IMG/VR virus record: IMGVR_UViG_3300022562_001969
Location: 22,115 to 86,114 of that record
Reading direction: 5' to 3' (one strand)
From: a virus
Length of the DNA: 64,000 nt
Shown here: positions 4,734-20,613 of the stretch, piece by piece
Layout of the letters: the number at the start of each line of letters is the position of its first letter
Position numbering within the stretch: the first letter of the stretch is position 1
Translations under genes and position numbers: made by a program
Notes under the pieces: generated by a model
Told to the model about the DNA's origin: nothing
The model's input: the letters and a program-made list of their open reading frames with translations, nothing else
Database searches by the model: none

Positions 4734-4740
4734 ATGTAAT

Positions 4741-4911: not shown

Positions 4912-4954
4912 ATAATAGATAATTGTCAATTGTCAATTATCAATTGTCAATTAT

Positions 4955-5061
4955 AAACAGAGGGCCATCCGGGTGCAACCGGTGGCCCCGCTTACATACT
5001 ATATCAGGGGCACAGCATGCAAGGTACTTTTTATTTTACCAACGATAAAAAAAATAGACAA
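4955..5061 (-). ncRNA. Putative cis-antisense RNA over the start of ORF 5017-5205
   Basis: TTGTCT-17-TAAAAT (5061-5033); terminator GGGCCACCGG...CCGGATGGCCCTCTGTTT. Confidence 0.55.
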
Positions 5062-5205: not shown

Positions 5206-5882
5206 CGGTGGGCGTGCGAGCCAAACGGATCACGGCCAACCAGTTTGAATACACCCTAAACGGTCCCGCCGAAATCTCGGATGACGCCAGATTTAGCACG
5301 GTGGCTGACGACCTGGTCCTGTCCGGCGCGTTTGGCGGCGCGTTGGGAGCCGTGGCGGGGGGCGCGGTGGCTGTCTTCGCGCCGGAGTACGCCCTGCACG
5401 GGGCCGGCGTGGGCATGAGCGCCGGGGTAGCCCTGGCCTGGGGCTGGTTGTGCGCGGAACATAACCAACGGCTGAAACGGGTGTTGCCCTGGTTCGTTGA
5501 GCAGCGGCAAAACTGGAAACGGCCCGAGCTGGGGGACGATGGCGAGATCAGGCTGACGGTAGATCATCTCCATCGGGACAGCTACAGCGAGCAAGGCCGC
5601 TCCATCGCCCTCCTGGGGACCCTACCGGTCGATGTGGAGCGCTTCCGGGCCTGGGCGCAAGGGGCCATCCGGGGCGATAGCCTGGCCATCAAACACTGGA
5701 CGGGAGCCGAACGGCCTTTCAGCCGGGATGAGTATGATCGCCTGCTGCTCAAAATGAGGGCGGCCAATATAGTGACCAATCTGCCGGGGAAGGGCAATAC
5801 CCTGACCAATCCCGGCAAGCACGCTCTGAAACGTATCCTGGCCGAGACCCCCTCCCCTACCCCGGCTGAGGAGCGTGCGTGA
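5130..5882 (+). CDS. Hypothetical membrane protein (Zn knuckle, 2 TM, C-terminal wHTH-like)
   Basis: CPQC motif, Gly/Ala-rich TM hairpin, GKGNTLTNPGK tail; strong RBS. Confidence 0.7.
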   Translation: MAKRRVKCPQCGYRHIINIPSRKAMTVGVRAKRITANQFEYTLNGPAEISDDARFSTVADDLVLSGAFGGALGAVAGGAVAVFAPEYALHGAGVGMSAGVALAWGWLCAEHNQRLKRVLPWFVEQRQNWKRPELGDDGEIRLTVDHLHRDSYSEQGRSIALLGTLPVDVERFRAWAQGAIRGDSLAIKHWTGAERPFSRDEYDRLLLKMRAANIVTNLPGKGNTLTNPGKHALKRILAETPSPTPAEERA

Positions 5883-6088
5883 TGCCAAAAAGCCCGGAAA
5901 ATGCACGCACGCACGTGCCCGCCCGCTCCAGATGGGGCTATAGCGTCTCCTATTGGCCCAGCAAAAGCGAATTCAGGATTGTTAACTATGGCCAGGGGGA
6001 GCTGATCAAGTCGTTGCTGTTTTGGTGGCGTTTGCGCCGCCATCCCTCATTTAAGAATGTACGATGGTCGTTAATCACTGATTGGTAA
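5879..6088 (+). CDS. Hypothetical protein
   Basis: GTGA overlap with the upstream gene. Confidence 0.45.
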   Translation: MMPKSPENARTHVPARSRWGYSVSYWPSKSEFRIVNYGQGELIKSLLFWWRLRRHPSFKNVRWSLITDW

Positions 6089-6094
6089 GGTGCT

Positions 6095-6910
6095 ATGACA
6101 AAACCAGACAATAAACAGAAACCTTTCATCATCCGCTATAGAGAATTTTGGACCAATGTCCAGGCGATGATCTTCTACCCCTTCCAGAATATCGGCCCTT
6201 TCATTGTGGCCGCTATGCCGGCGCTCTTCACCGGCCATAGCGTCTACACCTGGTACGCGGAAACCAGCGCCGCCTGGCTGGCCATGCTCATTAGCTGCGT
6301 GGTGGCTATTGCCATGGAGGCGATCAATATCAACGTGGTCCATACATCCCTCGATCTTTTTGAGCAAAAACAAAATGGCAAGGGTTGGCTGATGGCCCTT
6401 TTCTCCCTCATTGTAATGGCCCTGGTTTCGACCGTTATCGGCTTCAGTGAAGGGGACCTATCCCCCTTGATCAAGGGGTTGGCCGTCTCCAGCCCCTGGC
6501 TCACCGGCATTGTCTACCTGGCGGTCGGGATGGCGCAGGGCATCCACCAGGAGAAACAGCAAGCCGATTTGGACAGAAACGAGCGGCGTCAATCCGAGGC
6601 GGAACAACGTGAGTTCGAGCGACAATTGAAGCTAAAAGAGATAGACAAAAATCACGAATTACGATTAGCCAAAATTGAAGCGGCTAAAAGTGTTCAATCG
6701 AGTGTCAAGCCAACTGTTCAATCGAGTGTCAAGGGGTTGACACCTGAAGATGTCAAAAACGCTGTTTCCCAATCGGAAAAGCCGGTTAACATTACACAAT
6801 TGGCTAAAGATTTACAAGTAAGCCGGACAACACTTTACACTAAACTGAACGGTCTGGTAGATAGTGGGGAAATGATTAAAAATGGGAACGGTTACGAGGT
6901 AATCAAATAA
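6095..6910 (+). CDS. Multi-TM + coiled-coil + C-terminal HTH protein
   Basis: 4 TM segments, QEKQQADLDRNERRQ coil, NITQLAKDLQVSRTTLYTKL HTH. Confidence 0.8.
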   Translation: MTKPDNKQKPFIIRYREFWTNVQAMIFYPFQNIGPFIVAAMPALFTGHSVYTWYAETSAAWLAMLISCVVAIAMEAININVVHTSLDLFEQKQNGKGWLMALFSLIVMALVSTVIGFSEGDLSPLIKGLAVSSPWLTGIVYLAVGMAQGIHQEKQQADLDRNERRQSEAEQREFERQLKLKEIDKNHELRLAKIEAAKSVQSSVKPTVQSSVKGLTPEDVKNAVSQSEKPVNITQLAKDLQVSRTTLYTKLNGLVDSGEMIKNGNGYEVIK

Positions 6911-6924
6911 TTTATGAAGACCGC

Positions 6925-7059
6925 TTGGTCAAACGCTGTTTATGGTGCAATGGTTTAGGTTATGATACCTACCTGGGCCACACTTGCGATATGTGTAACG
7001 GCAAAGGTGGAAAATGGGAACGGGTGAGGGTACTAGTAGGTGAGGAAGTAATAGAATGA
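6925..7059 (+). CDS. Small DnaJ-type zinc-finger peptide (start uncertain); not in ORF track
   Basis: CLWCNGLG...CDMCNGKG; stop overlaps the next ATG (ATGA). Confidence 0.5.
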   Translation: MVKRCLWCNGLGYDTYLGHTCDMCNGKGGKWERVRVLVGEEVIE

Positions 7060-7547
7060 GAAAAATAATGCTCTTGGCATTAACTTTAATTATCTTGACA
7101 GGCTGCAATAGTAGCGTCAAAAACGCTAAAGCCGAAGCCATACGTCACCAGACTGACCGCGCAGACGATTGGCACATTGCCAGATTAGAGGAATCCGAGG
7201 CTTTAATGCCAGTCAGAATTATGGTCAAGGAAGTGCTTTGGTATACCGGTATGGTTAGCGGTATCCTTCTCCTTTTAGGTAGCGGCCTGGCCGGTGGCTG
7301 GTGGATGGTAGGCACATCAGTCAACAGGGTGAAATTTCACCGGGTCAGTCTGGATGTCCAGACAAGGCAGTATCCACTGTTGGTTTATGGCAACGGCCGG
7401 CGGGTCTTCAACCCGAATACCGGCGAACGGCTATTGTTGGCCGAAAACAGTGAAGCGTCTTTGACCCGGATCGAGGCCAGTACAAAGGTACAACTGGCGG
7501 GGATGCTACCGGATCGGATGATAATAGATGATCCTCATCATCACTAA
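7056..7547 (+). CDS. Putative lipoprotein with an extra TM segment
   Basis: MRKIMLLALTLIILTGC lipobox. Confidence 0.75.
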   Translation: MRKIMLLALTLIILTGCNSSVKNAKAEAIRHQTDRADDWHIARLEESEALMPVRIMVKEVLWYTGMVSGILLLLGSGLAGGWWMVGTSVNRVKFHRVSLDVQTRQYPLLVYGNGRRVFNPNTGERLLLAENSEASLTRIEASTKVQLAGMLPDRMIIDDPHHH

Positions 7548-8011
7548 CCCCACCAGGCGCAGCCGGTCATCGAGCGGCAGATTATCATGGTGGTGGGGCC
7601 GGGTCAGTCGCGGGGGGAGATGTGGCGGCAGTTAAGCGCGAGCTATGACGATAGACGACGGTAGACGATAGACGATAGACGGCCGGTGACCGTTTAGCTA
7701 TCGTCCATCGTCCATCGTCGAATGTTCGCGTGCGAACACTTACCTTAGATCTACTCTTCGCCGGTGGCGTAACCCAGTATCTGACCTATCGGCCGCCCGG
7801 TGACAATCTCCAGCAAAGTGTCAGTGTCATCCGGACCAACCTCATCAAATCGCCTCGCCAAATGCGATACAACCTGAAATACGGCTTCCTGGACGGCCAG
7901 GGCCTCGGCCGGGTCTATCTGGTCGGCCGGAGTGTTACCAGCACTCGGGCGGCCTGCCAATCAAATCCTTACCAGGTGGACGCGGATGAGGGGAGTTTTA
8001 TGGTTAGTGAG

Positions 8012-8419
8012 TCAAGGTTGTGAGGTAGGGTCTTGAGGACCTTGGATGATCATTTGTTCACCGCTCTCTGCTTCGGCCAGAGCGCGAAGCAACCGTTCCT
8101 GGAAACGCCGGCTATCTTCCTGGTCTACATCCGACTTTTTGAACATTTTTATATAAAACGCCTTGTAGGAACATTGCCAATGGCTACCAACATAATAAAC
8201 CCGGTGACGGCCAATTCTGATTTTGCGAACATTTTCCAAACCTGGCGGCATCCGCTTCAGCTTTTTATCGGAGGCGTCTAACGACCCCCTCCGCTCAGAG
8301 TTGGCCTCGTCGGCAAAACCAAAGAGCCTTTTTTCGATCATTGTCTTATCTCTGCTATTGGCGCGTTGAAGCTGGTCCAGTTGTTTATCGACCGTCTTAT
8401 TTATCGAGATCGAGCACAC
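8012..8419 (-). CDS. RelE/ParE-like toxin
   Basis: VDKQLDQL...LKRMPPGLENVRKIRIGRHRVYY. Confidence 0.65.
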   Translation of the reverse strand: MCSISINKTVDKQLDQLQRANSRDKTMIEKRLFGFADEANSERRGSLDASDKKLKRMPPGLENVRKIRIGRHRVYYVGSHWQCSYKAFYIKMFKKSDVDQEDSRRFQERLLRALAEAESGEQMIIQGPQDPTSQP

Positions 8420-8903
8420 GATACGTCTCCTGATCTTTAAAGGCTTTTTCTAATTGGATCAGTAAGGTATCATCCCGGATCAGGCGCTCATCTTCTAACG
8501 CATCAAGATCGATCCCCCGGATATTGAATTGAGCCATCTTCCGCAAGAAAGAAATGGCGCTATTGATCTGGGCGAAGGATAGATTAGGGAATTCTCCCTG
8601 TAATTCGTCATAATCTATAAGGCCGTCCAGGGCCTCCACAAATTCGTAGAGGGAGACTGATTGCCCGTCGTTCCCGACCAATACCGGGAGAAATCCAAGG
8701 TCTGGGTTCAGGTGAATATAGCCGCCGGTGGCTTTATTCCACGCCTCAAAAGAACTAAGGACGCTTGTACGGGTAGTTAGTTTCAGGCTGTCCCTTAGAA
8801 ACCGCTCAATCAGGTAATTTGTTTGGCCGGAGGGGCCACTATCCTGAACAATAAAAACAAGTCTGTTCTCAGCCTCGGTTGTTTTGACAATAGGATCATT
8901 CAT
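8397..8903 (-). CDS. DUF433-containing antitoxin-like protein
   Basis: NPDLGFLPVL...DELQGEFPNLSFAQINSAISF. Confidence 0.65.
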   Translation of the reverse strand: MNDPIVKTTEAENRLVFIVQDSGPSGQTNYLIERFLRDSLKLTTRTSVLSSFEAWNKATGGYIHLNPDLGFLPVLVGNDGQSVSLYEFVEALDGLIDYDELQGEFPNLSFAQINSAISFLRKMAQFNIRGIDLDALEDERLIRDDTLLIQLEKAFKDQETYRVLDLDK

Positions 8904-9225
8904 CAGCTGTTTGTCCTTCCAAAGCTTTACGCGCTTCAGGCGTTAATCGATTTTCCGGATTAGCCTCAATCTCTCCAAATAGTTGCTCATAGGCATTGAG
9001 GCTATTTGTTAAAGCATCGGCAACACGTTTGGCATGGGGGACGCTCAGATAAATTTTCGCCACGCCAACCGCCCCATCAGATTCTACATTCTTCTTTAAG
9101 CCAAAGTGCAAGACAATTTCTTCGGCGGTCACTTTTATTTCCATCAGGTCCGAGTAACACACCTTTTGATCAGGCGCATCAAGGATTTTTTCTTTCCTTT
9201 TCGCCACTTTGTCATCATCGGCCAT
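8896..9225 (-). CDS. DUF3467-like protein
   Basis: YSDLMEIKVTAEEIVLHFG...KIYLSVPHAKRVADALTNSLNAYEQLFGEI; GGAGGA RBS before ATG 9225. Confidence 0.75.
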   Translation of the reverse strand: MADDDKVAKRKEKILDAPDQKVCYSDLMEIKVTAEEIVLHFGLKKNVESDGAVGVAKIYLSVPHAKRVADALTNSLNAYEQLFGEIEANPENRLTPEARKALEGQTADE

Positions 9226-9435
9226 TATGGTCCTCCAAACTGGACTGTATTTTGTTCTGTTTATAACTATACTATAGCCGATCATTATCTGGCAAAAACG
9301 ATAAATCTTTCGTCGAATGTTCGCACGCGAACATTGACGATGGACGATTGACGACCGCTGTCTTTTAGTTGTGGCTGGTTTGGTGTCGGGTGGCTCTTTG
9401 GCAGTTTGGACGATGGACGATGGACGACCGCCGGT

Positions 9436-11085
9436 TTATATCTCCAACCGCCCTTGTGTTGGCCCTGCTCTTTCTTCTCTTTGGGCTTGTTTGAAGGTTC
9501 CATAGGCGGGCGGCATTTGTACACTTGCCCCCCCTAACAACGCCTCAATGGTAAGTATCTGAATTTTAGGGTATTTTTGGCCCCAGGCTACAGCCTCATA
9601 AAAACCGGCTGACACCGCCTCCTGGATCATCGGCTGCGTTGGTTCTTCCAGGGTGATAAAAACGCCGATAGCCGCCTTTTCCCGTTCAACCGTCCCAACC
9701 AGATCACGAATATCCCGGCTTGACACCTTGCCGCTCTTGACTTGCGCTAAAACCCGCTTAGGTTTGCCTTTTGCCGTATCAATAAAGGTGATAACCCCAT
9801 CGATCCCTTTATCCGCTCCTTTTTTGCCCTTTTTACTGCCCTGGGTCGCTTTGCCCGGTCTGGCCCTAACTAACGACAAGGCCCACCATTCAAACTGAAA
9901 GCGGTCTTGTTCTGCCAGAAAACGAGCAGAGCCTATTGTTTCAGGCTCGCCCTTGACTTCAAACGTTGTGTCCGGAAAGGCTTCTTGTAGACGATATTTT
10001 TGCAAGGCAATAGATAAATGGGTGATGTCAATACCTATCCACTTTCGGCCTAGTTTTTCAGCGGCTACTATCGCAGTACCACAACCGCAAAATGGATCAA
10101 GGACTACATCACCAGGGTTGCTACTGGCTGAAATGATACGTTCTAGTAAAGGTAAAGGTTTTTGTGTAGGATAACCCAGACGTTCAGCATCAGAACTTTG
10201 CAAAGGATTTATATCAGCCCAAATGTTTGTAATAATTGTTCCTTTTTGTTCGTTCAAAAAACGTTTAAGCGCAGGACGTTTACTAAAATCATAGGAACCA
10301 TCTTTGTGACGTGGATAATAAATGCGCCCTTCATCGTGTAACTTTTGCATGGTTTCAGGTTTATAACGCCAACCTTTAGCAGGATACGGAAAGCCTAGCC
10401 ATTCGTACATCATATTGGGTCTAGGATTTGGACTTGTCATATTATCCAAACGATATAAACCGCGTCCATTATTATCATCAAATCGGTAATTTTTTTGGAT
10501 ATATTCCAAATCATATGGTCCATATTGAACAATAAACAGGTTTTTTTTGGAACGTTTATAAAAAAGAATTATGTCAGCAATATCAGCAAATTTCGTCTTT
10601 GCGTCACTATGGGCTGACTGTCGTTTCCAAATAATTTCATTGCCAAAGTTCTCAGCCCCAAAAATAGTATCAAGGATGACCTTCAAATAATGGCTTGCTG
10701 TTGGGTCACAATGCAGATATAAGCTACCAGTAGGGTTCAATACCCGATGAAGTTCAACCAATCGACTAGCCATCATAACCAAATAAGCCATCATTTGGTT
10801 AGCGCCAATAAAATCACGCATGGCCCCAATCATCTTACTTATATGATCTGGTGATTCTGTTATCAATTCGTGATAGGTTTCCTCAGCGGCCGCGTTCCAG
10901 TGCCAAGTATCATCAAAAGCCGTTATCTGCGCCTGGCTATCTTGCCCACTTTCATCTTTGAATAAGACATTATAGCTGCGCTTTGAGTTAAAGGGGGGGT
11001 CAAGATAGACTAAATCAATACTTTCATCTGCTATGTAATCACGTAGAATTTGAAGGTTATCGCCATAATAAAGGGTATTTTTCAT
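9436..11085 (-). CDS. N4/N6 DNA methyltransferase fused to a C-terminal Mrr-like endonuclease domain
   Basis: DLVYLDPPF, VLDPFCGCGT, GADKGIDG...QVKSG; start MKNTLYYGDNL. Confidence 0.92.
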   Translation of the reverse strand: MKNTLYYGDNLQILRDYIADESIDLVYLDPPFNSKRSYNVLFKDESGQDSQAQITAFDDTWHWNAAAEETYHELITESPDHISKMIGAMRDFIGANQMMAYLVMMASRLVELHRVLNPTGSLYLHCDPTASHYLKVILDTIFGAENFGNEIIWKRQSAHSDAKTKFADIADIILFYKRSKKNLFIVQYGPYDLEYIQKNYRFDDNNGRGLYRLDNMTSPNPRPNMMYEWLGFPYPAKGWRYKPETMQKLHDEGRIYYPRHKDGSYDFSKRPALKRFLNEQKGTIITNIWADINPLQSSDAERLGYPTQKPLPLLERIISASSNPGDVVLDPFCGCGTAIVAAEKLGRKWIGIDITHLSIALQKYRLQEAFPDTTFEVKGEPETIGSARFLAEQDRFQFEWWALSLVRARPGKATQGSKKGKKGADKGIDGVITFIDTAKGKPKRVLAQVKSGKVSSRDIRDLVGTVEREKAAIGVFITLEEPTQPMIQEAVSAGFYEAVAWGQKYPKIQILTIEALLGGASVQMPPAYGTFKQAQREERAGPTQGRLEI

Positions 11086-11461
11086 TGGTTGACCACCTGA
11101 CCAGGCCAGGCTATAACAAATGGCAAGTGAACGGTTCACCATCATGCCCGTGGAGAATACCCTGATTTTATCCGAGTTTGGGATGACAGGCAAAAAAGAC
11201 GGTCGTCCATCGTCCATCGCCCATCGTCGGTTACTTGTTTTCAGGCCAAAAGGGTATATAATTGATTTAGCGACATTTTGGCTTGATAGTCTGATCAAGA
11301 TATAATAGTAAAAGAAGCTCCAACCTCTGACAGGCTATCTGTCCAAAGTGTCGCAACTTGAGAGGTCTGGGGCTTCTTTTTGGTGCTTCAGGATTTTCCG
11401 TGGGAACCACTATATCGCCATACAAGAAAAGTAAGCCAACTTTCAAAGATAGGTTCGCAAG

Positions 11462-13513
11462 ATGACTGAAAGCCGCCAACCTGGTAGGAATTTTAGGGAT
11501 GAATTACTTAAGATTTTGTCAGGGATGACCGCTTTGGATGACCCTGACAACCGATATCGGCTATTGGACAAGTTGCCACTAGAGGCAGTAGCAACCATAC
11601 GACGCAATTCTGCTAAGGGGACCGACCTATACAATATCGTTCAGGCTGCCGAAGGATGGGGACAATTGACCTCTGGAGAGTGGGCCTTGGTCGTTATCGC
11701 CCAAAACGCCCTATCTCTAGTTAAAGGAACCCACCCCGGTCGTCAGCTAGAGGCTCTTTTAGCTGAAAGGGTTATTCATCAGGCCAAGCCAGGCCGGCAG
11801 ATCCCCCTTGATCTGCCAGCGCGAGAGGAGAATTTTATAGACCGTAAGGACGAACTGGTATCTCTACTCACCGAATTACAACCAGGACGAGTAGTCACTT
11901 TGACTGGGCCGGGGGGCATGGGCAAGACTGCCCTGGCCGCGGAAGCCGTTGGCCAACTGGTGGTTGATCATAAGCCCCCTGAGCGTTTCCCGGATGGCAT
12001 CTTCTTTCATAGCTTTTACAACCAACCCCAAGCCGGTTTAGCCCTGGAAAGTCTGGCCCTGGCCTTTGGCGAGGAAGCCAGGCCAACGGCCCAGGTAGCG
12101 GCACAACGGGCGTTGAGCGGCCGGCAGGCCTTATTGGTGTTGGATGGCGCTGAAGATGCGGATGACTTGGCGGCCGTGTTAGCGGTGCGCGGGGGGTGTG
12201 GGGTTTTAATAACCAGCCGTAATCGGGGCGATGCGCCGGCCGTGTTGCAAGACCTGGCGCCCCTCAAACAGCAAGACGCCCTGGACTTATTACAACGCTG
12301 GGCTGAAGCGCAGCTTGATGACCAGGCGGCGGCCATTGCCATCTGCGAACTGGTGGGGAGGCTGCCGCTGGCGGTGCGTCTGGTAGGGCGGTATCTGCGT
12401 GAGACCGGGGAGACGGCCAGCGAGTATCTAGCCTGGTTACAAGAAACCCCGTTAGAGGCCCTGAACCAGGGGCGGCGACGCGAAGAAAGTATACCTGTCT
12501 TACTTGAGCGCAGTCTAAAGCAGGTCAGTGAGGCGGCGCGGCAAGTGTTGGCGGTGGCCGGCCGGCTGGCGCTGGCCCCGCTGCAACAAGAGGTGATGGG
12601 GGCCGCTTTGGCAGCCGAAGCGCGTGAGGTGAGACAGTGGTTAGGAGAATTGGTGCGCTATGGCTTGCTGAGCCGGGACAAAGGGCGTTATGCCATCAGT
12701 CACGCCCTCATTCACACCTACGCCAGTGAGCGGCTCAATGTGGCGGAGGAGATGGTCGAGCGGTTGGTGGCTTTCTATGTCGCTTTGGCTGAACACTTTA
12801 GCCAGCAAGGATTGGCAGGCTACCAGGCGCTTGATGGGGAGCGGCCTCACCTGCTGCGCTTGATTGCAGGCTGCGCGAAAGGAGATGATTGGCTGGGGGT
12901 TCGCAAGCTGGTCTGGGCCATTGATGGTTATTTGTCAATTCAGGGTCACGCCAGCGAACGACAAACTGCCCTAGCGACAGGGCTAACAGCCGCCCAACAA
13001 CTGGGCGACCGCCAAGATGAAGGGGCATTTTTAGGCAGCCTGGGGACCGCCTACTACGACCAGGGGGAGCTGGACAAAGCCATCGCCCATTCTCAGCAAG
13101 CCCTGGTCATCCACCGCGAGATTGGCTACCGCCAGGGGGAGGCTGCTGTTTTAGGCTACCTGGGAACCGCCTACAGCATCCAGGGGGAGCTGGCCAAAGG
13201 CATCGACCATTATCAGCAAGCCCTGGTCATCCACCGCGAGATTGGCTACCGCCAGGGGGAGGCTTATAATTTAGGCATCCTGGGTCTCGCCTACCGCGCC
13301 CAGGGGGAGAGGGCCAAAGCCAGAGAATACTTAGCCCAGGCGCTCACTATTTTTGAGGCGATCAAATCGCCCCAGGCAGACGCAATTCGTGAACAGTTGA
13401 CTATGCTGACTATGTTAGGCCGCCTCCATATACTCTTAGCAATGTGTCAGGCCATCTACGAGAAAGGATTGATGAGGCAGCTTTTGCCGCTTTTCAAAAG
13501 GCTTATTCACTAA
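11462..13513 (+). CDS. EAD-like domain + STAND (NB-ARC) NTPase + TPR protein
   Basis: GPGGMGKT Walker A, LLVLDG Walker B, GRLPLA motif, TPR repeats (HREIGYRQGEA); N-terminal helical EAD8-like segment. Confidence 0.88.
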   Translation: MTESRQPGRNFRDELLKILSGMTALDDPDNRYRLLDKLPLEAVATIRRNSAKGTDLYNIVQAAEGWGQLTSGEWALVVIAQNALSLVKGTHPGRQLEALLAERVIHQAKPGRQIPLDLPAREENFIDRKDELVSLLTELQPGRVVTLTGPGGMGKTALAAEAVGQLVVDHKPPERFPDGIFFHSFYNQPQAGLALESLALAFGEEARPTAQVAAQRALSGRQALLVLDGAEDADDLAAVLAVRGGCGVLITSRNRGDAPAVLQDLAPLKQQDALDLLQRWAEAQLDDQAAAIAICELVGRLPLAVRLVGRYLRETGETASEYLAWLQETPLEALNQGRRREESIPVLLERSLKQVSEAARQVLAVAGRLALAPLQQEVMGAALAAEAREVRQWLGELVRYGLLSRDKGRYAISHALIHTYASERLNVAEEMVERLVAFYVALAEHFSQQGLAGYQALDGERPHLLRLIAGCAKGDDWLGVRKLVWAIDGYLSIQGHASERQTALATGLTAAQQLGDRQDEGAFLGSLGTAYYDQGELDKAIAHSQQALVIHREIGYRQGEAAVLGYLGTAYSIQGELAKGIDHYQQALVIHREIGYRQGEAYNLGILGLAYRAQGERAKAREYLAQALTIFEAIKSPQADAIREQLTMLTMLGRLHILLAMCQAIYEKGLMRQLLPLFKRLIH

Positions 13514-13800
13514 AGACAATGCGTGAGGCAGCAACTCAGTTTCCGGCAATGACTGAGGAGACGTTTCGGGACGCTGTAAAGGCGTTCATAGATGAGCAAG
13601 TGCCAAAGAACTATATATTTTCGTTTAAGCAACGATTGATGTGGTTAGGTCAACTTCTTGATGAGTGGCCAGATGAACCAGTCTCAGGATCGTTAAAAAA
13701 GGAAACTTCCGCTGTGAGATCTATAATCAAGCCAAAATCGCTTAAAGAGCGGAAGAAGATTAAAGCGCAAAGGAAGTGGTGGCAGTTTTGGAAGAAATGA
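13444..13800 (+). CDS. Hypothetical protein with KWWQFWKK tail
   Basis: Amphipathic C-terminal motif; start uncertain. Confidence 0.5.
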   Translation: MSGHLRERIDEAAFAAFQKAYSLKTMREAATQFPAMTEETFRDAVKAFIDEQVPKNYIFSFKQRLMWLGQLLDEWPDEPVSGSLKKETSAVRSIIKPKSLKERKKIKAQRKWWQFWKK

Positions 13801-13852
13801 GGTTGATTTTTAGCTTTGGACGATGGACGACCGGCGGCGACTTAAGACTGCG

Positions 13853-13981
13853 GCCGCCCATCGTCCATCGTCCATCGTCGCCAAGGCGAAGCGACCACCG
13901 ACGACACAACACCGCCGCCCATCGTCCATCGTCCATCGTCGCCAAGGCGAAGCGACCACCGACGACACAACACCGCCGCCC
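13853..13981. repeat. 61-bp tandem repeat (about 2.1 copies) built on TCGTCCA heptamers
   Basis: Period 61 visible; inverted relative of the 15900-16120 units. Confidence 0.9.
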
Positions 13982-13993
13982 GCCGTCCATCGT

Positions 13994-14935
13994 CTATCGT
14001 CCATCGTCCGTCGTCAGCCCCCGGTACGCCCGGGCCCGGGCCTCATCCCGGCCGCGCAGATAGACCGAAGTCGTGGCGATGTCCGCATGGCCCAATTGGT
14101 CGCGCACCTTGTCCAGGGAGACGCCGGCTTCGAGGGCCAGCAAAGCCGAGGTGTGGCGCAGGGCGTGAAAGTAAGCCCGGGGCAAGCCGGCCGCCCTGGC
14201 CCGGCGCTTGAACAGTTGGCTCACCCCGGAGGCGGTCAGGCCGGGCCCCGGGCGGCCCCAGCGCCAGGCCGGGAAGACATGAGCGGGCCGGTGGCCACCC
14301 TCGGCCAGATAACGTTGCCAGGCCCACAAATCCCCTTTGACCGCCAAATTAAAATAGACCACCCGCCCCCGGCGCGTCTTGGCCGTCTCCGCCGCCACCT
14401 CGGCGGCCAGCTCGGCCAGGCGCAGTTGCTCCCAGCGCAGGGCGGCCACTTCCCCGGCCCGGCAGCCGGTGACCAGGGCAAAATGGACCAGGGCCAGGTC
14501 GCGCAGCTCACGCCCCTCGCCGGCGGCGGCCGCCCGGCGCAACTGGGCCAGCAGGCGCTCCACTTCGGCCCGGCTGAGGGCCACCGGCGGCAGGTGGGGC
14601 CGGGGCGGCAAGAGGCGCAATTGGGCAATTTGCCGGGTCGGGTTGCGGTTGGCCTCAATGATCTCTAATTGTTCCAAAAAGTTGAAAAATGCGCGCAGGT
14701 GGGTATAATAGGTGCGCACCGTCACCTCTCCACCGGCGGTGGAGTCTATCCAGCCCATTACCTGACCGGCCGTGACCGGCCAGGCCGGGCCGATGTAGTC
14801 GGCGAAGCGGCTTAAGATATTGGTGTAGTTCTGTAGCGTCTTCGGCCGCCACGAACGTCTCTTGAGAGTGATAAAACCTTTAATGTGCCCTCCCAGAATG
14901 GTATCCGGGAGGGACACAGAAGGCGGCGTAGCCAT
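13994..14935 (-). CDS. Tyrosine recombinase/integrase (XerC/D-like)
   Basis: TGCRAGEV, HALRH, LGHADIATTSVY catalytic motifs. Confidence 0.95.
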   Translation of the reverse strand: MATPPSVSLPDTILGGHIKGFITLKRRSWRPKTLQNYTNILSRFADYIGPAWPVTAGQVMGWIDSTAGGEVTVRTYYTHLRAFFNFLEQLEIIEANRNPTRQIAQLRLLPPRPHLPPVALSRAEVERLLAQLRRAAAAGEGRELRDLALVHFALVTGCRAGEVAALRWEQLRLAELAAEVAAETAKTRRGRVVYFNLAVKGDLWAWQRYLAEGGHRPAHVFPAWRWGRPGPGLTASGVSQLFKRRARAAGLPRAYFHALRHTSALLALEAGVSLDKVRDQLGHADIATTSVYLRGRDEARARAYRGLTTDDGR

Positions 14936-14957
14936 ACGATTGGAGGCTCCGGAGAGA

Positions 14958-15038
14958 CTTCGGAGTCAAAACCTTTAGGTTTTTCTTCGGAGTCGAAACC
15001 TTTAGGTTTTTCTTCGGAGTCAAAACCTTTAGGTTTTT
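14958..15038. repeat. Three tandem 27-bp repeats upstream of the integrase
   Basis: CTTCGGAGTC(A/G)AAACCTTTAGGTTTTT at 14958, 14985 and 15012. Confidence 0.95.
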
Positions 15039-15079
15039 CAAGCCTGAAGGCTTGGACTCCTCTATTCCGGAGTCGAAAC

Positions 15080-15108
15080 CGGTTCACCCCCACGTCTGTG
15101 GGGAATAC
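15080..15108 (-). CRISPR. Solitary type I-E repeat upstream of the integrase
   Basis: GTATTCCCCACAGACGTGGGGGTGAACCG on the minus strand. Confidence 0.92.
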
Positions 15109-15179
15109 GGGCTCCGGTTAATGCCCAAACCTAAAGGCTTGGACTCCTTTGAGCCTTTGAGCCTTTGAGCCTAAAATAA

Positions 15180-15212
15180 AAACCTGACCGGTTTTTGAAA
15201 CCAGTCAGGTTT
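15180..15212. repeat. REP-like hairpin or terminator
   Basis: AAACCTGAC-CGGTTTTTGAAACCA-GTCAGGTTT; (CCTTTGAG)3 adjacent at 15146-15172. Confidence 0.55.
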
Positions 15213-15221
15213 GTTACCTCG

Positions 15222-15614
15222 CTACGCCGCCGTGCGTTGCTGGTATTCCACCAGCATCTCGACCGGATCGCGGCCGGCCACGCGGCCCAGGGCCTCTTCC
15301 CAGTCGCCGCTGTGGAGGATGGCGTTGAGGGATTCGACGGCCTGCACCAGGGCCACCTCAAGGTCCAGCAGGGCGACGATGTCCACCGCCCCACTCGCCT
15401 CTCTGGTAGGGTTGGCGGCGAAGTCAGTCAGGGCCGCAATGGCCTCGACCAGTCTCGCCAGCCCGGGCAACTCAGCGCCGGGGGCTACTTCTGCTTCCGG
15501 CGCCAGCTCGCCCAACGCCAGGCTGGCCGCCAGCAGACCGGTTGCCGCCAGAAATCCGCGACGGTCTATTTGGTTGTTGGTTTGGGGGTGTGCTAAAATA
15601 CGTTCAGTTCTCAT
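15222..15614 (-). CDS. Hypothetical protein with twin-arginine-like signal
   Basis: DRRGFLAATGLLAASLAL; GAGGAG RBS; N-terminus ILAHPQTNNQI resembles HEPN copy 1 ILAQPQTNPQI. Confidence 0.7.
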   Translation of the reverse strand: MRTERILAHPQTNNQIDRRGFLAATGLLAASLALGELAPEAEVAPGAELPGLARLVEAIAALTDFAANPTREASGAVDIVALLDLEVALVQAVESLNAILHSGDWEEALGRVAGRDPVEMLVEYQQRTAA

Positions 15615-15675
15615 GGTAAGCTCCTCTTACTGTGTGAATTAGGGCCGGTTTGATGTTTCAGCATCAGGCCGGCTC
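15591..15675 (+). ncRNA. Putative cis-antisense RNA over the start of 15222-15614
   Basis: TGcTAAAAT 15591-15599; hairpin GCCGGTTTGATG...CATCAGGCCGGC. Confidence 0.55.
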
Positions 15676-15799
15676 GTTCGTTTAAAGTTGACCACATTAT
15701 ATGCCCAAACTCAGCATTAGTCAAATCCGGCTCAGGATTTATTTTTTTACGACGCTTGCGGCTGGCCGCCGGGCGACGTATACTAATAGTAGCTCTCAT
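15611..15799 (-). CDS. Small basic protein
   Basis: AAGGAG RBS, ATGA overlap with the next gene. Confidence 0.5.
   Translation of the reverse strand: MRATISIRRPAASRKRRKKINPEPDLTNAEFGHIMWSTLNERAGLMLKHQTGPNSHSKRSLP
15696..15724 (-). promoter_or_regulatory. Sigma-70 promoter
   Basis: TTGACT-17-TATAAT. Confidence 0.8.
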
Positions 15800-15868
15800 G
15801 GTATCTCCTTACTGTGAGAGTATGGTTTCGCCTCGTTTTTTAGCCCGCGAGGCGAAGCCTGTTTTTTT
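15756..15868 (+). ncRNA. Putative cis-antisense RNA over the start of 15611-15799
   Basis: TTGCGG-17-TATACT; terminator GGTTTCGCCTCG...CGAGGCGAAGCCTGTTTTTTT. Confidence 0.6.
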
Positions 15869-16160
15869 GGACGATAGACGATGGACGATGGACGGCGGGC
15901 GGCGGTTTGACGGGCGGCGGTCGTCCATCGTCGGTCGTCGCTTCGCCTTGACGACGATAGACGATGGACGGCGGTTTGACGGTCGTCGGTCGTCCATCGT
16001 CGGTCGTCACTTTGCCTTGGCGACGCTAGACGATAGACGATAGACCGCGGTTTGACGGTCGTCTATCGTCCATCGTCGGTCGTCACTTCGCCTTGGCGAC
16101 GCTAGACGATAGACGATGGATGGCTGTATGGCATCGTCGGTCGTCGGTCGTCGGTCGTCG
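15869..16160. repeat. About three imperfect ~70-bp units built on GACGAT(G/A)/TCGTCCA heptamers
   Basis: CGGTTTGACGG...CTTCGCCTTG(G)CGACG repeated. Confidence 0.85.
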
Positions 16161-16263
16161 TTCCGCCAGGCGTCAACTTGTTTGGATAGCATACCTCTAC
16201 GTAGGTCTCCCGTTAGGTTTCCGTTTTGCCGGTTTGGTAAAACGGCCTTGCTGGGGGGGGATT

Positions 16264-16293
16264 ATCGTATCATAGGTGGGGGGGATCTGTCAA
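16264..16293 (-). promoter_or_regulatory. Leftward promoter of the integrase-side operon
   Basis: TTGACA-18-TACGAT with extended TG; C7 run in the spacer. Confidence 0.65.
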
Positions 16294-16381
16294 GCGGTTT
16301 TAAGCTTCGCGACGATGGACGATAGACGACCGGCGACTAACGACGACCGTCTCTTTTGTTTATTTGTTTATTTGTTTATTT

Positions 16382-16740
16382 ATTTCAATCCACGCCCCCC
16401 GTGAGGGGAGCGACTTCGGTGAAGGAAAAAATTCCTTAACCGATGGGGTTTCAATCCACGCCCCCCGCGAGGGGAGCGACATAAAAACAGGCTTCGCTTT
16501 GCGGGCTATTTCAATCCACGCCCCCCGCGAGGGGAGCGACTTGGCCGGTCAAGGTGATCCGCCAACCGGTTGCGGTTTCAATCCACGCCCCCCGCGAGGG
16601 GAGCGACTTGCTGAAACGTTCGTGGTAGACTGTTTCAGTTTGTTTCAATCCACGCCCCCCACAAGGGGAGCGACGCGACCAGCTCATCACTATCCAATTC
16701 AAAAAGCGTTTCAATCCACGCCCCCCACAAGGGGAGCGAC
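16382..16740 (-). CRISPR. Type I-C CRISPR array: 6 repeats (33 nt), 5 spacers (33, 27, 34, 34, 33 nt)
   Basis: GTCGCTCCCCT(CGC/TGT/CAC)GGGGGGCGTGGATTGAAA(C/T); repeats start at 16382, 16448, 16508, 16575, 16642, 16708. Confidence 0.96.
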
Positions 16741-16910
16741 GGCAACATCTGGGTATACCCAGATTATACATAATATATATTGTGGCGCCTTTTTTGTCAA
16801 TCGGACAACCGGCTCAATATTGCTCGCTAAATGTTCTTTTTTGGGGTGGTTAAGGTACAAAATAGGCGCGAACCCTCCGGGCAATGGCTGGGCGCTTGGG
16901 GTTCGCAAAC
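16741..16910 (-). promoter_or_regulatory. Type I-C leader with promoter
   Basis: GCGAACCCC...GGGTTCGCGC inverted leader motif 16866-16907; TTGACA-17-TATATT 16800-16772. Confidence 0.85.
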
Positions 16911-16927
16911 CCAGATTAAAGGATGAT

Positions 16928-17010
16928 CGGTTCACCCCCACGCCTGTGGGGAATACTCGTCCATCGTCCATCGTCGCGAAGCGGTTCACCCCCCCGCCTG
17001 TGGGGAATAC
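16928..17010 (-). CRISPR. Type I-E mini-array: 2 repeats, one 25-nt spacer
   Basis: GTATTCCCCACAGGCG(T/G)GGGGGTGAACCG at 16928-16956 and 16982-17010. Confidence 0.95.
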
Positions 17011-17197
17011 GCTCCAAAACGTTATAAAGTTTTAATGTTACAACCGTTCGCTAGCTTAGAACACGGATATGGGGAGGGTAACGGATTTTCGACCTGGCTA
17101 TAAGTAATCCGTTACCTTCTGCCAATCCGCTGTTCTCAAGCTAACCGTGCAATAGCAGCAACGCCCAAACGGTCGTCCATCGTCCATCGTCAGCCGT

Positions 17198-17503
17198 CTA
17201 TCGTCCACCGTCCATCGTCACCCCCGGGCAGCCTTCGACAAGCTCAGGCTGCTGCGGTCGTCCATCGTCGGTCGTCCATCGTCGGTCGTCCATCGTCGCC
17301 CCCCGGGCGGCCAGCGCCGTATTAAGCGCCTTGAGTTCCGCCTCAAGATCACCTATTTTTTTTTGCAAAGCGGTTTCGTTGGCGGCCATCTTGGCCAACC
17401 GCTTCTCCAGGGTAATATTCAGGAGAAGCGCCTGGCTTAATAGTGAGCCCCAGCGTTGGCCGAGGGTATCGACCAGCTCCAAAATTTGCTGTTCGGTCAT
17501 CAT
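17198..17503 (-). CDS. Small coiled-coil protein (C-terminus encoded by repeats)
   Basis: ATGA overlap with the upstream gene. Confidence 0.55.
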   Translation of the reverse strand: MMTEQQILELVDTLGQRWGSLLSQALLLNITLEKRLAKMAANETALQKKIGDLEAELKALNTALAARGATMDDRRWTTDDGRPQQPELVEGCPGVTMDGGR

Positions 17504-17766
17504 GGTCTCTCGAACAGGAATTGGTCAATGTTCGTACCGTGGCCGCCCGCTAACCAGATATTCAGTAGGTCATTGATTGATGAATATGCGTTGTCATACT
17601 GCGTTTTATTAACCGCTCGCCCGTCAAAATCCCCGCTGACCAATGCAATATAATTATTATGAGTATGCCTGCTATACAATCCTTCTAAGTCGGTCAAAAT
17701 CTTTCTAAATTCTTGTAATTTCTGACCGGTTTCTTCGATGTGACTGTTAAACGTATTTATTGCCAT
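17500..17766 (-). CDS. Hypothetical protein
   Basis: Follows the tail fibre in the operon. Confidence 0.65.
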   Translation of the reverse strand: MAINTFNSHIEETGQKLQEFRKILTDLEGLYSRHTHNNYIALVSGDFDGRAVNKTQYDNAYSSINDLLNIWLAGGHGTNIDQFLFERP

Positions 17767-17770
17767 ATTA

Positions 17771-19453
17771 TTATCCTAAAATTCCCGCTGTCTGAAAATC
17801 GTTAATGAGTGTTCCCAGCACGTCGGCTATTTCGGCCAATGTCGTACTATCCGCGTCGAATGACCTGTCCGTGGTGACATTGGTCGGCGTGTAGGTTTGC
17901 AAGCCGCCGTCTTTGGCAATGATAACCGTATTGCCGGAGCTAAAAACTACTTTTTGCTGAGTGGTTCCCCCCCCATCATCCTCAGCGTATAGACGAGTGG
18001 TGTTTGCCCCGCCTGCGCCCGGCGCAGTCATCTCTGTAAATTCAATATCTCCCGCCCCCAGGTCGATTTTGGCTGATGGTGAGGCTACGCCAACGCCAAT
18101 ATTAGCGGCGGCGGTAATGACCAACCTGTTACCACTGCCCCCTACCGTAAACCGCATCTCATCAGCCGAGTGGTTGTAGACAAACTGACCAACATTGGCG
18201 CTACTGGCGTCGCCAAAATCTATAATGGAGTTTGCCGCCGCGCCCCCTATCAGGGTTAGGCGGACATTGTCTGTAGTATTGACGTTGTTTTGGACAAAAA
18301 TCCCGTTACCCGTTGGGATGGAGGGCAACGAGCCGGCTCCGCCAGTAACGTGCAATTTGTATTGCGGGCTGCTTTCACTGATGCCGACATTGCCACCCGG
18401 CAACACCCGTAATCTTTCGACATTGCCGCCGCTATTATTGGGACTGGTTTTAATGAAAAATGACATCGGCACGGTATTGGCGGCCACACTGCCCTCTATC
18501 TCGGCCCCAAACTGGGCGGCCAGATTATAATCGGTGCCGTCGTGGGCCTCAAAATTGAACAGCCCTACAGTGTCTCCAGCCTGAACTGCCGCCCCCCCGG
18601 CTCTGGCTCGCAAAAATGCGGCCTGGCTGCCACGCCCGGCCGTATCCGATTGTCGCGACAACACGATAGCGCGGACGTTGGCCACGTCCGCATCCTGCAC
18701 GGACAGTTGCGCCTGAGTGACCGTACCTTGAAACGTATATTGCGTATCGGCCGACCTGATACTAACAGCCTCATTAGTCACATCGACATTAAACACCGGC
18801 GCGCCGCCATCAGCGTCCAATACCTGGAAAAAGTCCGTACTATCAGTCGTTGGTTGTAGCTTTATCTGGCCGGTAGAGGTAGGTTTAATGGTTAAGTCGT
18901 GGCTGGCGTCTACCGCCAGCGTGGCGTAGACCGAATTATCCGTATGGGTGAGCCGTAGTTGCGGGCCGGCGTTATTGAGGATGTCCACCTGATTGCGAGG
19001 CGTGGCCACGCCAACGCCGAAAAAGCCGTCACTGCCCCGCAAAAACATATCGCCATTGAAATTGATGTCCACATCCCCTGAGCCGGGGCCAAGGGTAATC
19101 AAATCCTGGGTGGTCTCTGTCAATTTCAGCATCGACAGGCCGCCAGCGGTAAACTCTATCTCATCGTCAGCGAAACAAATTTTGGTGTCCGGGTCGCCAG
19201 TGTGAATGATGCAATCGGCCAGGGTCAGATTACCCACCCCACTCAGATCGCCGGTGATAATCAGGTTTCCGGCCAGGGTGACATCGCCGTTATTGTCAAC
19301 GCTCACAGCCGGATCAACCGTCCCATCCGGCGAGACCATGACGCTATGAGGCGGCGCTTCCAGAGTTTTCAATTGGTTCAGATCGGTAATTAGCCGGATC
19401 ATCCCCTGATTGCTTTGCTGGCCAATCACCTCGTTGAAATTTGGATCAGGCAT
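17771..19453 (-). CDS. Tail fibre / receptor-binding protein
   Basis: GNVGISESSPQYKLHV and NIGVGVASPSAKIDL fibre repeats; position. Confidence 0.85.
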   Translation of the reverse strand: MPDPNFNEVIGQQSNQGMIRLITDLNQLKTLEAPPHSVMVSPDGTVDPAVSVDNNGDVTLAGNLIITGDLSGVGNLTLADCIIHTGDPDTKICFADDEIEFTAGGLSMLKLTETTQDLITLGPGSGDVDINFNGDMFLRGSDGFFGVGVATPRNQVDILNNAGPQLRLTHTDNSVYATLAVDASHDLTIKPTSTGQIKLQPTTDSTDFFQVLDADGGAPVFNVDVTNEAVSIRSADTQYTFQGTVTQAQLSVQDADVANVRAIVLSRQSDTAGRGSQAAFLRARAGGAAVQAGDTVGLFNFEAHDGTDYNLAAQFGAEIEGSVAANTVPMSFFIKTSPNNSGGNVERLRVLPGGNVGISESSPQYKLHVTGGAGSLPSIPTGNGIFVQNNVNTTDNVRLTLIGGAAANSIIDFGDASSANVGQFVYNHSADEMRFTVGGSGNRLVITAAANIGVGVASPSAKIDLGAGDIEFTEMTAPGAGGANTTRLYAEDDGGGTTQQKVVFSSGNTVIIAKDGGLQTYTPTNVTTDRSFDADSTTLAEIADVLGTLINDFQTAGILG

Positions 19454-20613
19454 TATATATCCTCAAACTCCATCCGGATTTCATCCACCTCCTCGCCATC
19501 CGGGTTGACGCTGGTGGAGATGCTGCGCAATTGTTTGTTCACCCGCACCCCGGAGCGATTGGACTGCGCAGTCACAAAATCGGCCAGAAAATAATCCCGG
19601 TATAACACCTGCGCCCCCCGGCGCGGGTTGAAGTTGAATTGCTCTTTGGAGACCAGCTCCTTCAGCTTGGCCTTGGCCGACCCTACCAGGTCGGCCGCCG
19701 TGTCACTCTGCACCGAGTTGACCACGCTCTCACGCTGGGCGATACCCGACACCGCCAGGCTGTCCGTGTCGGTGGCCACCTCTACCCGGCGATCAGAGCC
19801 ATAGCCCTGCCCCAGGGCGACCACCACATTGGCTTCGTTGTAGCGGCTGCGGCTGAGGCGCTCCGACTGAATGTTGCCCAATTGCGCGCTGAAAATGAGA
19901 GGGGCGTTGCCGGCGGCGTTTAGACCACCGCTGCCAATGTGCAGCCCCTCGGTGGTCCGGTCAATGCCCAATTGACCGACCTCAAATTGAAACTGAAACC
20001 CACCCAGATAAGTCACCCGGAAATCGACCTTGTCGGTGATGGCGGCGTTATTCTCGCGGGTGAAATCGCTAATCTCGCGGATGGTGGCCATTAAATTCTT
20101 TCTGGCCTTGGAGCCGGACCAGGTTCCCCCCAGGATCGGATCCGCCGCCAGAGTGACCAAATTCTGGGCCGGATAGTCGCGGCTGGCCGTCCCACCGGCC
20201 CCCACGTTTTCATACACGTATGAGAGCATGACGCTGGAAGCGGCCCCGCTTTTGTTGGCCTGGGCGCTGTCGGTCGGATATAAAATCCAGGTTTTTTCTA
20301 ATAGCTCCTCCATCGCCGGGCCGTAGGAAGTGTAAATCTGCTGGCCGTTTGGCGAGAGTGAATCGCTAAAAGTTTTGTGGATACCGTTGAAGATGTTGAG
20401 CCAGTCAATGCCAAAGGTGTTATCCTGAAACCAAATCCGGACAATGGAGTCGTCCTGAATTTCGCCAATGCGACTATCAAACCCGGATAAGGTGAGCTGG
20501 TATTCCCCCTTGGCCGAGATACGTTGGGTGAAAGAGAGCGAGCGGAAATCCTCAAAAATGGCCACAGTGGAGCCGGCCGAGTTTTCAATATCCACCCGAT
20601 AAAGAACCGGCAT
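19453..20613 (-). CDS. Minor tail / hub protein (ReqiPepy6 Gp37-like)
   Basis: NVVVALGQGYG...LYRDYFLADFVT; position after Dit. Confidence 0.8.
   Translation of the reverse strand: MPVLYRVDIENSAGSTVAIFEDFRSLSFTQRISAKGEYQLTLSGFDSRIGEIQDDSIVRIWFQDNTFGIDWLNIFNGIHKTFSDSLSPNGQQIYTSYGPAMEELLEKTWILYPTDSAQANKSGAASSVMLSYVYENVGAGGTASRDYPAQNLVTLAADPILGGTWSGSKARKNLMATIREISDFTRENNAAITDKVDFRVTYLGGFQFQFEVGQLGIDRTTEGLHIGSGGLNAAGNAPLIFSAQLGNIQSERLSRSRYNEANVVVALGQGYGSDRRVEVATDTDSLAVSGIAQRESVVNSVQSDTAADLVGSAKAKLKELVSKEQFNFNPRRGAQVLYRDYFLADFVTAQSNRSGVRVNKQLRSISTSVNPDGEEVDEIRMEFEDI

Follow-up and report, generated by a model that had tools for sequence, protein, structure and literature searches.

A type I-E CRISPR mini-array with a shortened spacer and a matching, promoter-proximal site in the same phage genome: a candidate self-directed regulatory guide

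Anatomy of the mini-array

The stretch of DNA analysed here (the window, 64,000 nucleotides) comprises bases 22115-86114 of the 86,114-bp IMG/VR virus record IMGVR_UViG_3300022562_001969, which carries 144-bp direct terminal repeats, is rated complete and represents a siphovirus-like, temperate phage. The element in question is a CRISPR mini-array composed of two 29-nt type I-E repeats and one 25-nt spacer. About 630 bp from it, within the same phage genome, the site 16305-16329 matches the spacer, is flanked by AAG and lies beside a promoter-like sequence. Coordinates are those of the window unless they are given as genome positions.

The mini-array is read on the minus strand and includes the leader-proximal repeat (R1, 16982-17010), the spacer or guide CTTCGCGACGATGGACGATGGACGA (16957-16981) and the leader-distal repeat (R2, 16928-16956). 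On the plus strand both repeats correspond to CGGTTCACCCCCNCGCCTGTGGGGAATAC; on the minus strand the repeat is GTATTCCCCACAGGCGTGGGGGTGAACCG, in which a stem-loop is followed by an 8-nt handle, the layout of type I-E. The canonical 7-bp stem, a tetraloop and the 8-nt handle GTGAACCG are present in R2. R1 contains a T>G exchange in the 3' arm of the stem, with a shifted hairpin register; its minimum-energy fold is out of register, the canonical 7-bp stem being found in the other three I-E repeat copies of the phage. The guide consists of six unique nucleotides, CTTCGC, followed by a heptamer tract, (GACGATG)2 GACGA.

When genome contigs were scanned for the exact pattern, the I-E repeat family turned up in at least 120 stretches, in arrays usually with a 61-nt period, and the commonest source among the matches listed was metagenome-assembled genomes (MAGs) of Chloroflexota/Anaerolineae. 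In two of these (G414:C241 and G415:C237) an array of the family lies directly downstream of a Cse1-containing operon and in the same orientation, which fixes both the subtype I-E and the reading direction. MAG arrays with the same loop and stem exist, and the repeats of one of them (L090, in G420) are identical to a solitary repeat of the phage at 5092. The spacers in MAG arrays of the family (n=1375) were mostly 32 nt (1033) or 33 nt (248) long; three measured 28 nt or less and none 25 nt. The type I-E mini-array and its spacer 7 nt below the canonical 32, as set out in the original prediction made from the letters of this DNA, were confirmed in coordinates, subtype and unusual length. In its repeat, stem-loop and handle the element has the features of a type I-E array; a spacer of 32-33 nt and cas genes, adjoining or elsewhere in the genome, were not found. 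No Cas protein was recognised among about 35 open reading frames (ORFs) scanned against Pfam, and no match to the Cas6e family occurred anywhere in the 86,114-bp record.

Within 320 bp upstream of the mini-array no sigma-70-like promoter was detected, even when the threshold was relaxed to 8 of 12 matches, and the upstream region showed no similarity to host leaders in the loci compared. For its expression the mini-array would have to rely on transcription running in from the late genes upstream or on an unconventional promoter, possibly one recognised by a phage sigma factor. A sigma-70 family protein with regions 2 and 4 is encoded by the phage itself (768-1724), so that some phage promoters may deviate from the host consensus. 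The mini-array does precede a type I-C leader, as had been pointed out earlier, but its placement "where cas2 normally lies" is a positional analogy only; no homology of the block to host CRISPR loci was found.

The matching site and further guide-like elements

The site at 16305-16329 (plus strand, the non-target strand) is identical to the guide in 24 of 25 positions and adjoins AAG (16302-16304, plus strand), which occupies the position of a type I-E protospacer-adjacent motif (PAM). The lone mismatch, at position 20, places a guide G against a target-strand T and would form a G:T wobble in the guide:DNA hybrid. Matches with one mismatch or fewer did not arise by chance in any of 100 shuffles. 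The coordinates of match, mismatch and AAG hold as first given. The accompanying proposal, that a unique seed selects this tract, can be retained in part: of about 45 tract sites this is the only one flanked by AAG, and no other shares the 6-nt prefix of the guide exactly, but two further 24/25 matches are found on the minus strand (13861-13885 and 13922-13946), each with a C4G seed mismatch, a CGC flank and no AAG. The seed is therefore unique only in combination with the PAM.

A promoter scan detected, beside this site, the sequence TTGACA-18-(TG)TACGAT (16264-16293, minus strand), which is directed leftward and points away from the arrays. Its predicted -35 element, TTGACA at 16293-16288, is 8 bp from the PAM, the distance that had been claimed, and the genome-wide scan also returned it, as one of 25 strong sites that lie mostly in the accessory region. 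Past the promoter-like site there are two small ORFs (15222-15799, minus strand) with no family match, of which one encodes a basic protein of 62 aa and the other a protein of 130 aa with a sequence resembling a twin-arginine translocation signal. Three to four hairpin units of 70-76 bp, built of heptamer tracts (15868-16167), lie between the promoter-like site and the 62-aa ORF. Farther downstream on the same strand a tyrosine integrase (13994-14935, minus strand) was identified by the Pfam scan. The cassette of the 130-aa ORF (15198-15760), which has an internal promoter-like site, possesses a 75% identical paralogue at genome positions 8632-9190, near a second tyrosine integrase.

About 30 heptamer tracts, (GACGATR)n, occur in the phage, mostly intergenic and often as inverted pairs forming hairpins. 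Of 401 Anaerolineae genomes sampled, 38 contained the 19-nt tract, and three (G253, G335 and G340) had more than 100 copies each; in these three the reversed pattern, used as control, gave zero. The tract is a dispersed repeat of the host lineage and not a speciality of the phage, and its distribution, together with the repeat matches in Anaerolineae, indicates a Chloroflexota (Anaerolineae) host. Similar heptamer repeats are the short tandemly repeated repetitive (STRR) sequences of cyanobacteria. A perfect 23-nt inverted repeat (16056-16078 and 16310-16332, arms 231 bp apart) brackets the promoter-like site 16293-16264. An invertible promoter between these arms was considered and rejected, as the contigs examined contained no strand-changing joints and the arms are ordinary tract ends.

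The space between mini-array and matching site is occupied by a type I-C array (16382-16740, minus strand) with six repeats and spacers of 33, 27, 34, 34 and 33 nt. Like the mini-array, it is canonical on the minus strand (GTCGC...ATTGAAAC), and its repeat family shares a contig with Cas8c in genome G102. Its 187-nt leader (16741-16927, minus strand) contains a strong promoter-like sequence, TTGACA-17-TATATT, at 16800-16772. The order along the minus strand, in the direction of transcription, is the mini-array, the 187-nt I-C leader, the I-C array, 53 nt and the target. In host arrays of the I-C repeat family, consecutive repeats start about 65-72 nt apart, so that their spacers should measure about 32-39 nt. 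Among the I-C spacers of the phage only spacer 2 is short (27 nt, 16481-16507, minus strand); it matches 15842-15868 (plus strand) in 24 of 27 positions. That site is flanked by TTT and precedes the ATG at 15799 by 43-69 bp. Spacer 1 (33 nt, 16415-16447) agrees with 60778-60810 in 30 of 33 positions, with mismatches at positions 2-4, an ACC flank and no PAM; that site itself forms a hairpin. For spacer 3 (16541-16574) there is a partial match, 24/34, at 58887-58920.

A third self-directed element is associated with a solitary type I-E repeat (15080-15108, minus strand), whose 3' flank begins with GTTTCGACTCCG. This flank recurs after AAG in three tandem 27-bp units (14961-15026, minus strand), each with AAG and a 12-nt match with no or one mismatch, which lie 26-94 bp upstream of the integrase start. 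The solitary repeat and its flanks are located between 23-nt direct repeats (15039-15061 and 15126-15148). Another solitary type I-E repeat (5092-5120), in the opposite orientation, ends 1 nt before the GGAGGAGCT-ATG of an ORF with no family match (5131-5882), so that Cas6e cleavage or binding at this repeat would fall on the ribosome-binding site. Comparison of these elements showed that the flank follows the type of repeat, AAG for both I-E elements and TTT, which is close to TTC, for the 27-nt I-C spacer. Moreover, the two shortened spacers are the two that have PAM-like, seed-intact matches to the phage.

The locus was also sought in other assemblies. A Logan contig from a marine-sediment run, which may be the source sample, covers 16928-19500 with zero differences; the mini-array is therefore not an artefact of one assembler. 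Logan contigs break at repeats, and the contigs of run X1 that were examined leave most of 15821-16905 uncovered. A second sediment sample yielded fragments of a relative with about 90-97% identity, and a fragment from run X2 covers 16162-16314; both sediment samples holding the phage or its relative also contain arrays with the repeat of the phage. One X2 contig joins the 29-nt I-E repeat (16956) directly to the tract at 17257, which may reflect another arrangement in a relative or a host spacer made from the tract. Among the runs listed for the stretch, none was recorded as RNA. No relatives of the phage were recovered from the IMG/VR, JGI metagenome, GenBank phage and Anaerolineae genome sets searched, and neither the minor tail protein nor the 130-aa protein had a match in IMG/VR viral contigs. 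The composite I-C/I-E architecture was absent from the viral contigs scanned, and metagenome contigs gave only chance matches inside ordinary arrays. A DNA search of 28 genomes of the family of G340 matched only I-E repeats, and 151 genomes of the family of G420 contained no homologue of 16170-16381.

A possible regulatory role and competing explanations

Matches to the guide were sought in candidate hosts. Host-like I-E loci totalling 0.9 Mb yielded none, and neither did the regions upstream of Cse1 and around the cas promoters in G414 and G415 or the 28 genomes of the tract-rich family. Five tract-rich genomes gave no good match, the best having three mismatches, mostly in the seed, and four hosts with near-identical repeats (same loop and stem) gave only matches at control level, one of them inside a coding region. 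A host target is therefore unsupported, and the sole seed-perfect, PAM-flanked match that was found is that in the phage itself. Protospacers for the deduction of a PAM were likewise sought, and 0 of 1375 family spacers matched the phage convincingly.

Shortened guides have been characterized in several type I systems. E. coli I-E guides that lack 6 nt still undergo processing and enter a Cascade with fewer Cas7 subunits; interference with phage and transformation is lost, while binding, slow plasmid loss and priming remain (PMC5159557). For I-B guides, the reduction from 36 to 28 nt removes most of the interference, and 24 nt gives pure repression (PMC10989794). Within cas loci, regulatory mini-arrays silence cas promoters and leave the DNA uncut, and a few phage mimics have been reported (10.1101/2023.03.03.530964). 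Viral Cracr RNAs and arrays were defined in a 2024-2026 preprint, whose I-E examples have 24- and 21-nt spacers and redirect Cascade to the host casA promoter (10.1101/2024.10.29.618823). Viral repeats serve two other purposes, as mini-arrays against related viruses (PMC11656645) and as solitary decoys (PMC10651486). In a limited literature search, no account was found of a guide that a phage directs at a promoter of its own.

The comparison of the mini-array with these systems showed partial agreement with each. It shares with Cracr elements (Liu et al., 10.1101/2024.10.29.618823) the phage-borne location without cas genes found here, the I-E repeat-like units, of which one is sometimes degenerate, the shortened spacer (24 and 21 versus 25 nt) and the proposed loading of host Cascade as a repressor; virus-borne repeat-like units around a shortened spacer are just what the locus contains. 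What defines Cracr elements, however, is that they resemble CreR/CreA and match a host cas or creT promoter on the PAM-proximal side, whereas for the phage guide no host match was found in the genomes searched and the near-full-length match lies in its own genome 630 bp away. CreR/CreA pairs (Shmakov et al., 10.1101/2023.03.03.530964; CreTA) consist of a mini-array or single repeat and a PAM-flanked promoter site in cis, and repress without cleavage. A PAM-flanked guide match at a promoter region of the same replicon is also present here, the promoter being a prediction, and the CreR/CreA design is closely approached by the solitary repeat at 15080, whose seed measures 12 nt. Unlike the phage element, CreR/CreA lie inside cas loci, regulate cas or toxin genes of their own locus and pair through a partial match; the mini-array lies in a genome in which no cas genes were found, is followed by ORFs without family match, would depend on a host effector and matches in 24 of 25 positions. 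Capture of a host CRISPR-locus fragment with a CreR and its target promoter was considered as an origin and rejected, no homology of the block to host loci being found.

The mini-arrays of interviral conflict, as far as they are described in PMC11656645 (from Medvedeva et al. 2019), likewise have one spacer between host-type repeats in viruses without cas genes found. According to the same account their spacers are full-length and directed against related viruses and not the carrier. The spacer of the phage, by contrast, falls short by 7 nt, and a seed-perfect, AAG-flanked copy is present in the carrier itself. Racrs (Camara-Wilpert et al. 2023, PMC10651486) are single repeats. The mini-array with its two repeats differs from these, but true solitary I-E repeats exist in the phage at 5092-5120 and 15080-15108, and the mini-array could add to a sequestration of Cas proteins. 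Racrs need neither spacer nor target, and the PAM-flanked matches in the phage are outside their mechanism. Engineered type I CRISPR interference (CRISPRi) with truncated spacers (PMC10989794 for I-B, PMC5159557 for I-E) provides the functional analogy, as a shorter guide weakens or removes cutting and keeps specific binding and repression; those guides are laboratory constructs, and the 26-nt I-E guide of E. coli still gives slow target loss and priming.

The explanation that we favour, with a probability of about 0.38, is that the mini-array encodes a Cracr/CreR-like regulatory RNA, resembling a CRISPR RNA (crRNA) and aimed at the phage's own control region, which would bind there with weakened cutting. 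From the anatomy we infer transcription, processing, loading into Cascade, binding without cutting and an effect on expression. The mini-array would be transcribed on the minus strand, and host Cas6e would cut the transcript to a guide with an 8-nt handle, the 25-nt spacer and a hairpin. This guide might load a host type I-E Cascade lacking one Cas7 unit, which would recognise the AAG and the 25-nt site (16302-16329). With a short R-loop, cutting by Cas3 would be weak or absent and the complex would mainly stay bound. Bound Cascade could then occlude the -35 and upstream region of the leftward promoter (16293-16264); alternatively or additionally, it could block read-through from the I-C array into the side of the small ORFs and the integrase.

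The AAG flank, the intact seed and a shortening of about one Cas7 step fit a guide of this binding-only, CRISPRi-like kind. In type I-E CRISPRi, pairing with the non-template strand is the orientation that best blocks elongation. In the leftward transcription unit this is the strand with which both short guides, the 25-nt I-E and the 27-nt I-C, would pair. Support for a regulatory guide comes from the seed-perfect match beside a PAM, the rarity of the spacer length, comparable cases in the I-C array and at the solitary repeat, and the failure to find a host target. The original prediction had spoken of a deliberate CRISPRi-like guide. Anatomy, PAM, seed, shortened length and the two additional self-directed elements sustain the CRISPRi-like part of that description, but the failure to find relatives or a promoter and the damaged R1 do not allow deliberateness to be claimed, and a decoy or a crippled self-acquired spacer would account for much of the same evidence.

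Several points weigh against a regulatory function. As no relatives were found, conservation of the element or covariation of guide and target has no evidence in its favour; no sigma-70-like promoter was detected within 320 bp upstream of the mini-array; and the R1 hairpin, which is required for the 5' handle, is mutated. The guide of E. coli shortened by 6 nt still causes slow plasmid loss and priming (PMC5159557), which would be harmful to the phage. The site extends from about -45 to -72 relative to the predicted start and so lies upstream of the -35 element, off the core promoter, and the PAM of the I-E repeat family of the phage was not derivable from the host spacers examined. Furthermore, the guide is mostly sequence of the repeat family and may have originated by local recombination, and in another complete phage (G419) a short-spacer I-E mini-array has no match to its own genome. 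Taken together, the observation is real and non-random, and its regulatory interpretation is plausible and has precedents in principle, in one genome only.

Two other explanations, each unlikely in our estimation, deserve serious comparison. The mini-array and the two solitary repeats could titrate Cas6e or Cascade subunits in the manner of Racrs, or the guide could repress a cas or creT promoter of an unsampled host, in which case the match in the phage would be a by-product of a spacer copied from a ubiquitous tract. In viruses, solitary repeats as well as mini-arrays with short spacers are well known as anti-CRISPR RNAs (PMC10651486; 10.1101/2024.10.29.618823), the same phage has two more solitary I-E repeats, other viral contigs carry solitary I-C repeats or another short-spacer I-E mini-array, and the tract family is common to host genomes. 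The guide, however, had no match in the tract-rich genomes, the I-E-bearing relatives and the hosts with near-identical repeats; a by-product is not expected to combine the unique 6-nt prefix with an AAG flank, and a pure decoy leaves the AAG-flanked seed matches of the solitary repeat unexplained. The other explanation, of similarly low probability, is crippled autoimmunity: host Cas1-Cas2 would have inserted array-adjacent DNA of the phage into the phage arrays, only lineages with disabled guides (through the 7-nt truncation or changes in seed or PAM) would have survived, and the guides would now be functionless. PAM selection at acquisition accounts for the AAG and TTT flanks, and a 26-nt identity takes in the terminal G of the repeat, which I-E systems copy from the PAM. 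The length of 25 nt equals 32 minus 7, exactly one heptamer, as would fit tandem-repeat slippage or a 3' deletion, and I-C spacer 1, with seed mismatches and no PAM, shows the classical pattern of escape. DNA beside an active array is reportedly (Levy et al. 2015) a hotspot of naive acquisition, which would explain why the targets cluster near the arrays, and the damaged R1 and missing promoter fit decay. Yet the I-E guide retains PAM and seed, which would go most readily if binding did harm; escape through truncation to one reduced size class in two different systems would be unusual; the matches upstream of the integrase to the seed of the solitary repeat are left unexplained; and the 25-nt spacer can be derived from the present target only by an exact 3' deletion that spared R2.

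Two further proposals are much less probable. That the spacer is not a guide appears improbable to us: spacer and 16304-16329 would be the arms of a 26-nt inverted repeat of tract elements bracketing the I-C array, acting as a long-range RNA stem within a read-through transcript or as DNA recombination sites, with the I-E repeats incidental. Tract elements in both orientations do flank every array and many cassettes, the tract arm has a perfect 23-nt inverted partner (16056-16078) with which it brackets the promoter-like site, and the X2 contig joins the I-E repeat directly to a different tract. It would then be left to coincidence that a tract sits exactly between two repeats with correct boundaries and that its unique prefix is shared with one site only, which carries the cognate PAM; moreover, the contigs examined contained no inversion or deletion joints at the arms. 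Highly improbable is the exclusion of related phages with a perfect tract site, to which the guide would steer host Cascade-Cas3. Among the known functions of viral mini-arrays it is the most frequent (PMC11656645), the second sediment sample holds fragments of a relative with about 90-97% identity, and another viral contig has the same repeat with a normal 32-nt spacer. The carrier, however, with its PAM-flanked, seed-perfect match, would be unprotected from its own guide, a shortened spacer is poor at interference (PMC5159557), and no target phage was found. Homing of the kind known from CRISPR-associated transposons (CAST) was also considered, as the array block, 53 bp from the PAM-distal end of the target, resembles CAST geometry; it was rejected, the phage giving no rve/DDE transposase match where control genomes were positive, and no TniQ match in a search for which the control was uninformative.

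If the self-directed regulatory guide is accepted for the sake of discussion, a broader proposal may be formulated, which we consider rather doubtful: that a phage in which no cas genes were found uses host CRISPR effectors as its own transcription factors, with the 25-nt I-E guide, the 27-nt I-C guide and the seed-only guide of the solitary repeat converging on one leftward control region (the promoter at 16293, the small ORFs' 5' region and the repeats upstream of the integrase). Expression of the integrase-side module would then depend on active Cascade in the infected cell, as a sensor of host state or a switch linked to lysogeny, and the phage would take the CRISPR-Cas activity of its cell as a signal for the control of its genes. 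The known uses of viral mini-arrays and crRNA-like RNAs are the attack on other viruses and the silencing of host cas genes; viral gene regulation at the virus's own promoter through a borrowed host effector would be a third. Natural truncation of guides would also separate binding from cutting in I-E and I-C simultaneously. The new aspect, a virus-borne, crRNA-like regulatory mini-array with a target in cis, is plausible and derives from a single genome. Should the elements be relics instead, they would indicate that phage-borne arrays acquire spacers from the phage itself and would illustrate how such autoimmunity becomes defused.

Gene content and related elements in other genomes

Genes for tail fibre, minor tail and head proteins run leftward from 17771 onward. 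The first 20 kb of the record include ParB-like, replication and exonuclease genes and the second tyrosine integrase (genome positions 10531-11538). Beside the integrase of the window there are defence-type genes: a DNA methyltransferase fused to an Mrr-like endonuclease domain and, adjoining it, an NB-ARC/NACHT-TPR protein (STAND NTPase) with an effector-associated domain (9436-11298 and 11462-13513). No Rfam match was obtained in window positions 1-20000.

Around the segment of integrase and small ORFs, tract-hairpin blocks of about 200 bp (13817-14016 and 15869-16167) are arranged in inverted orientation with 67-74% identity and resemble a cassette's terminal inverted repeats. Another heptamer family, (AATTGAC)n, which forms tandem TTGACA motifs, was found at 4630-4660, 4915-4955, 49558-49586 and 57025-57067 and in places directly adjoins a GACGATR tract. 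The window contains a third CRISPR array (3364-3984) with nine 37-nt repeats, the minus-strand repeat ending in ...ATTGAAAC, and spacers of 35-38 nt, of which 0 of 8 match the phage. A single identical copy of the 37-nt repeat is located at 1743-1779, 1.6 kb from this array.

Comparable elements were encountered in other genomes. In the complete 66.9-kb phage G419 (L175/L177, IMGVR_UViG_3300035704_000007) the region of about 32130-32210 contains an I-E repeat of the same family as the mini-array's, a spacer of about 19-22 nt and a degenerate second repeat; the spacer, which has no match in G419 itself, looks Cracr-like. The viral contig L005 (IMGVR_UViG_3300048059_000001) carries at 3422-3511 a two-repeat I-E mini-array with the repeat of the mini-array described here and a normal 32-nt spacer, and three viral contigs (L126-L128) have solitary I-C repeats of the family found in the phage. 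In a tract-rich Anaerolineae MAG (L157, G340:C358:7696-10206) a solitary I-E repeat is situated just past the end of an array with a different, 37-nt repeat, a composite layout like that of the phage.

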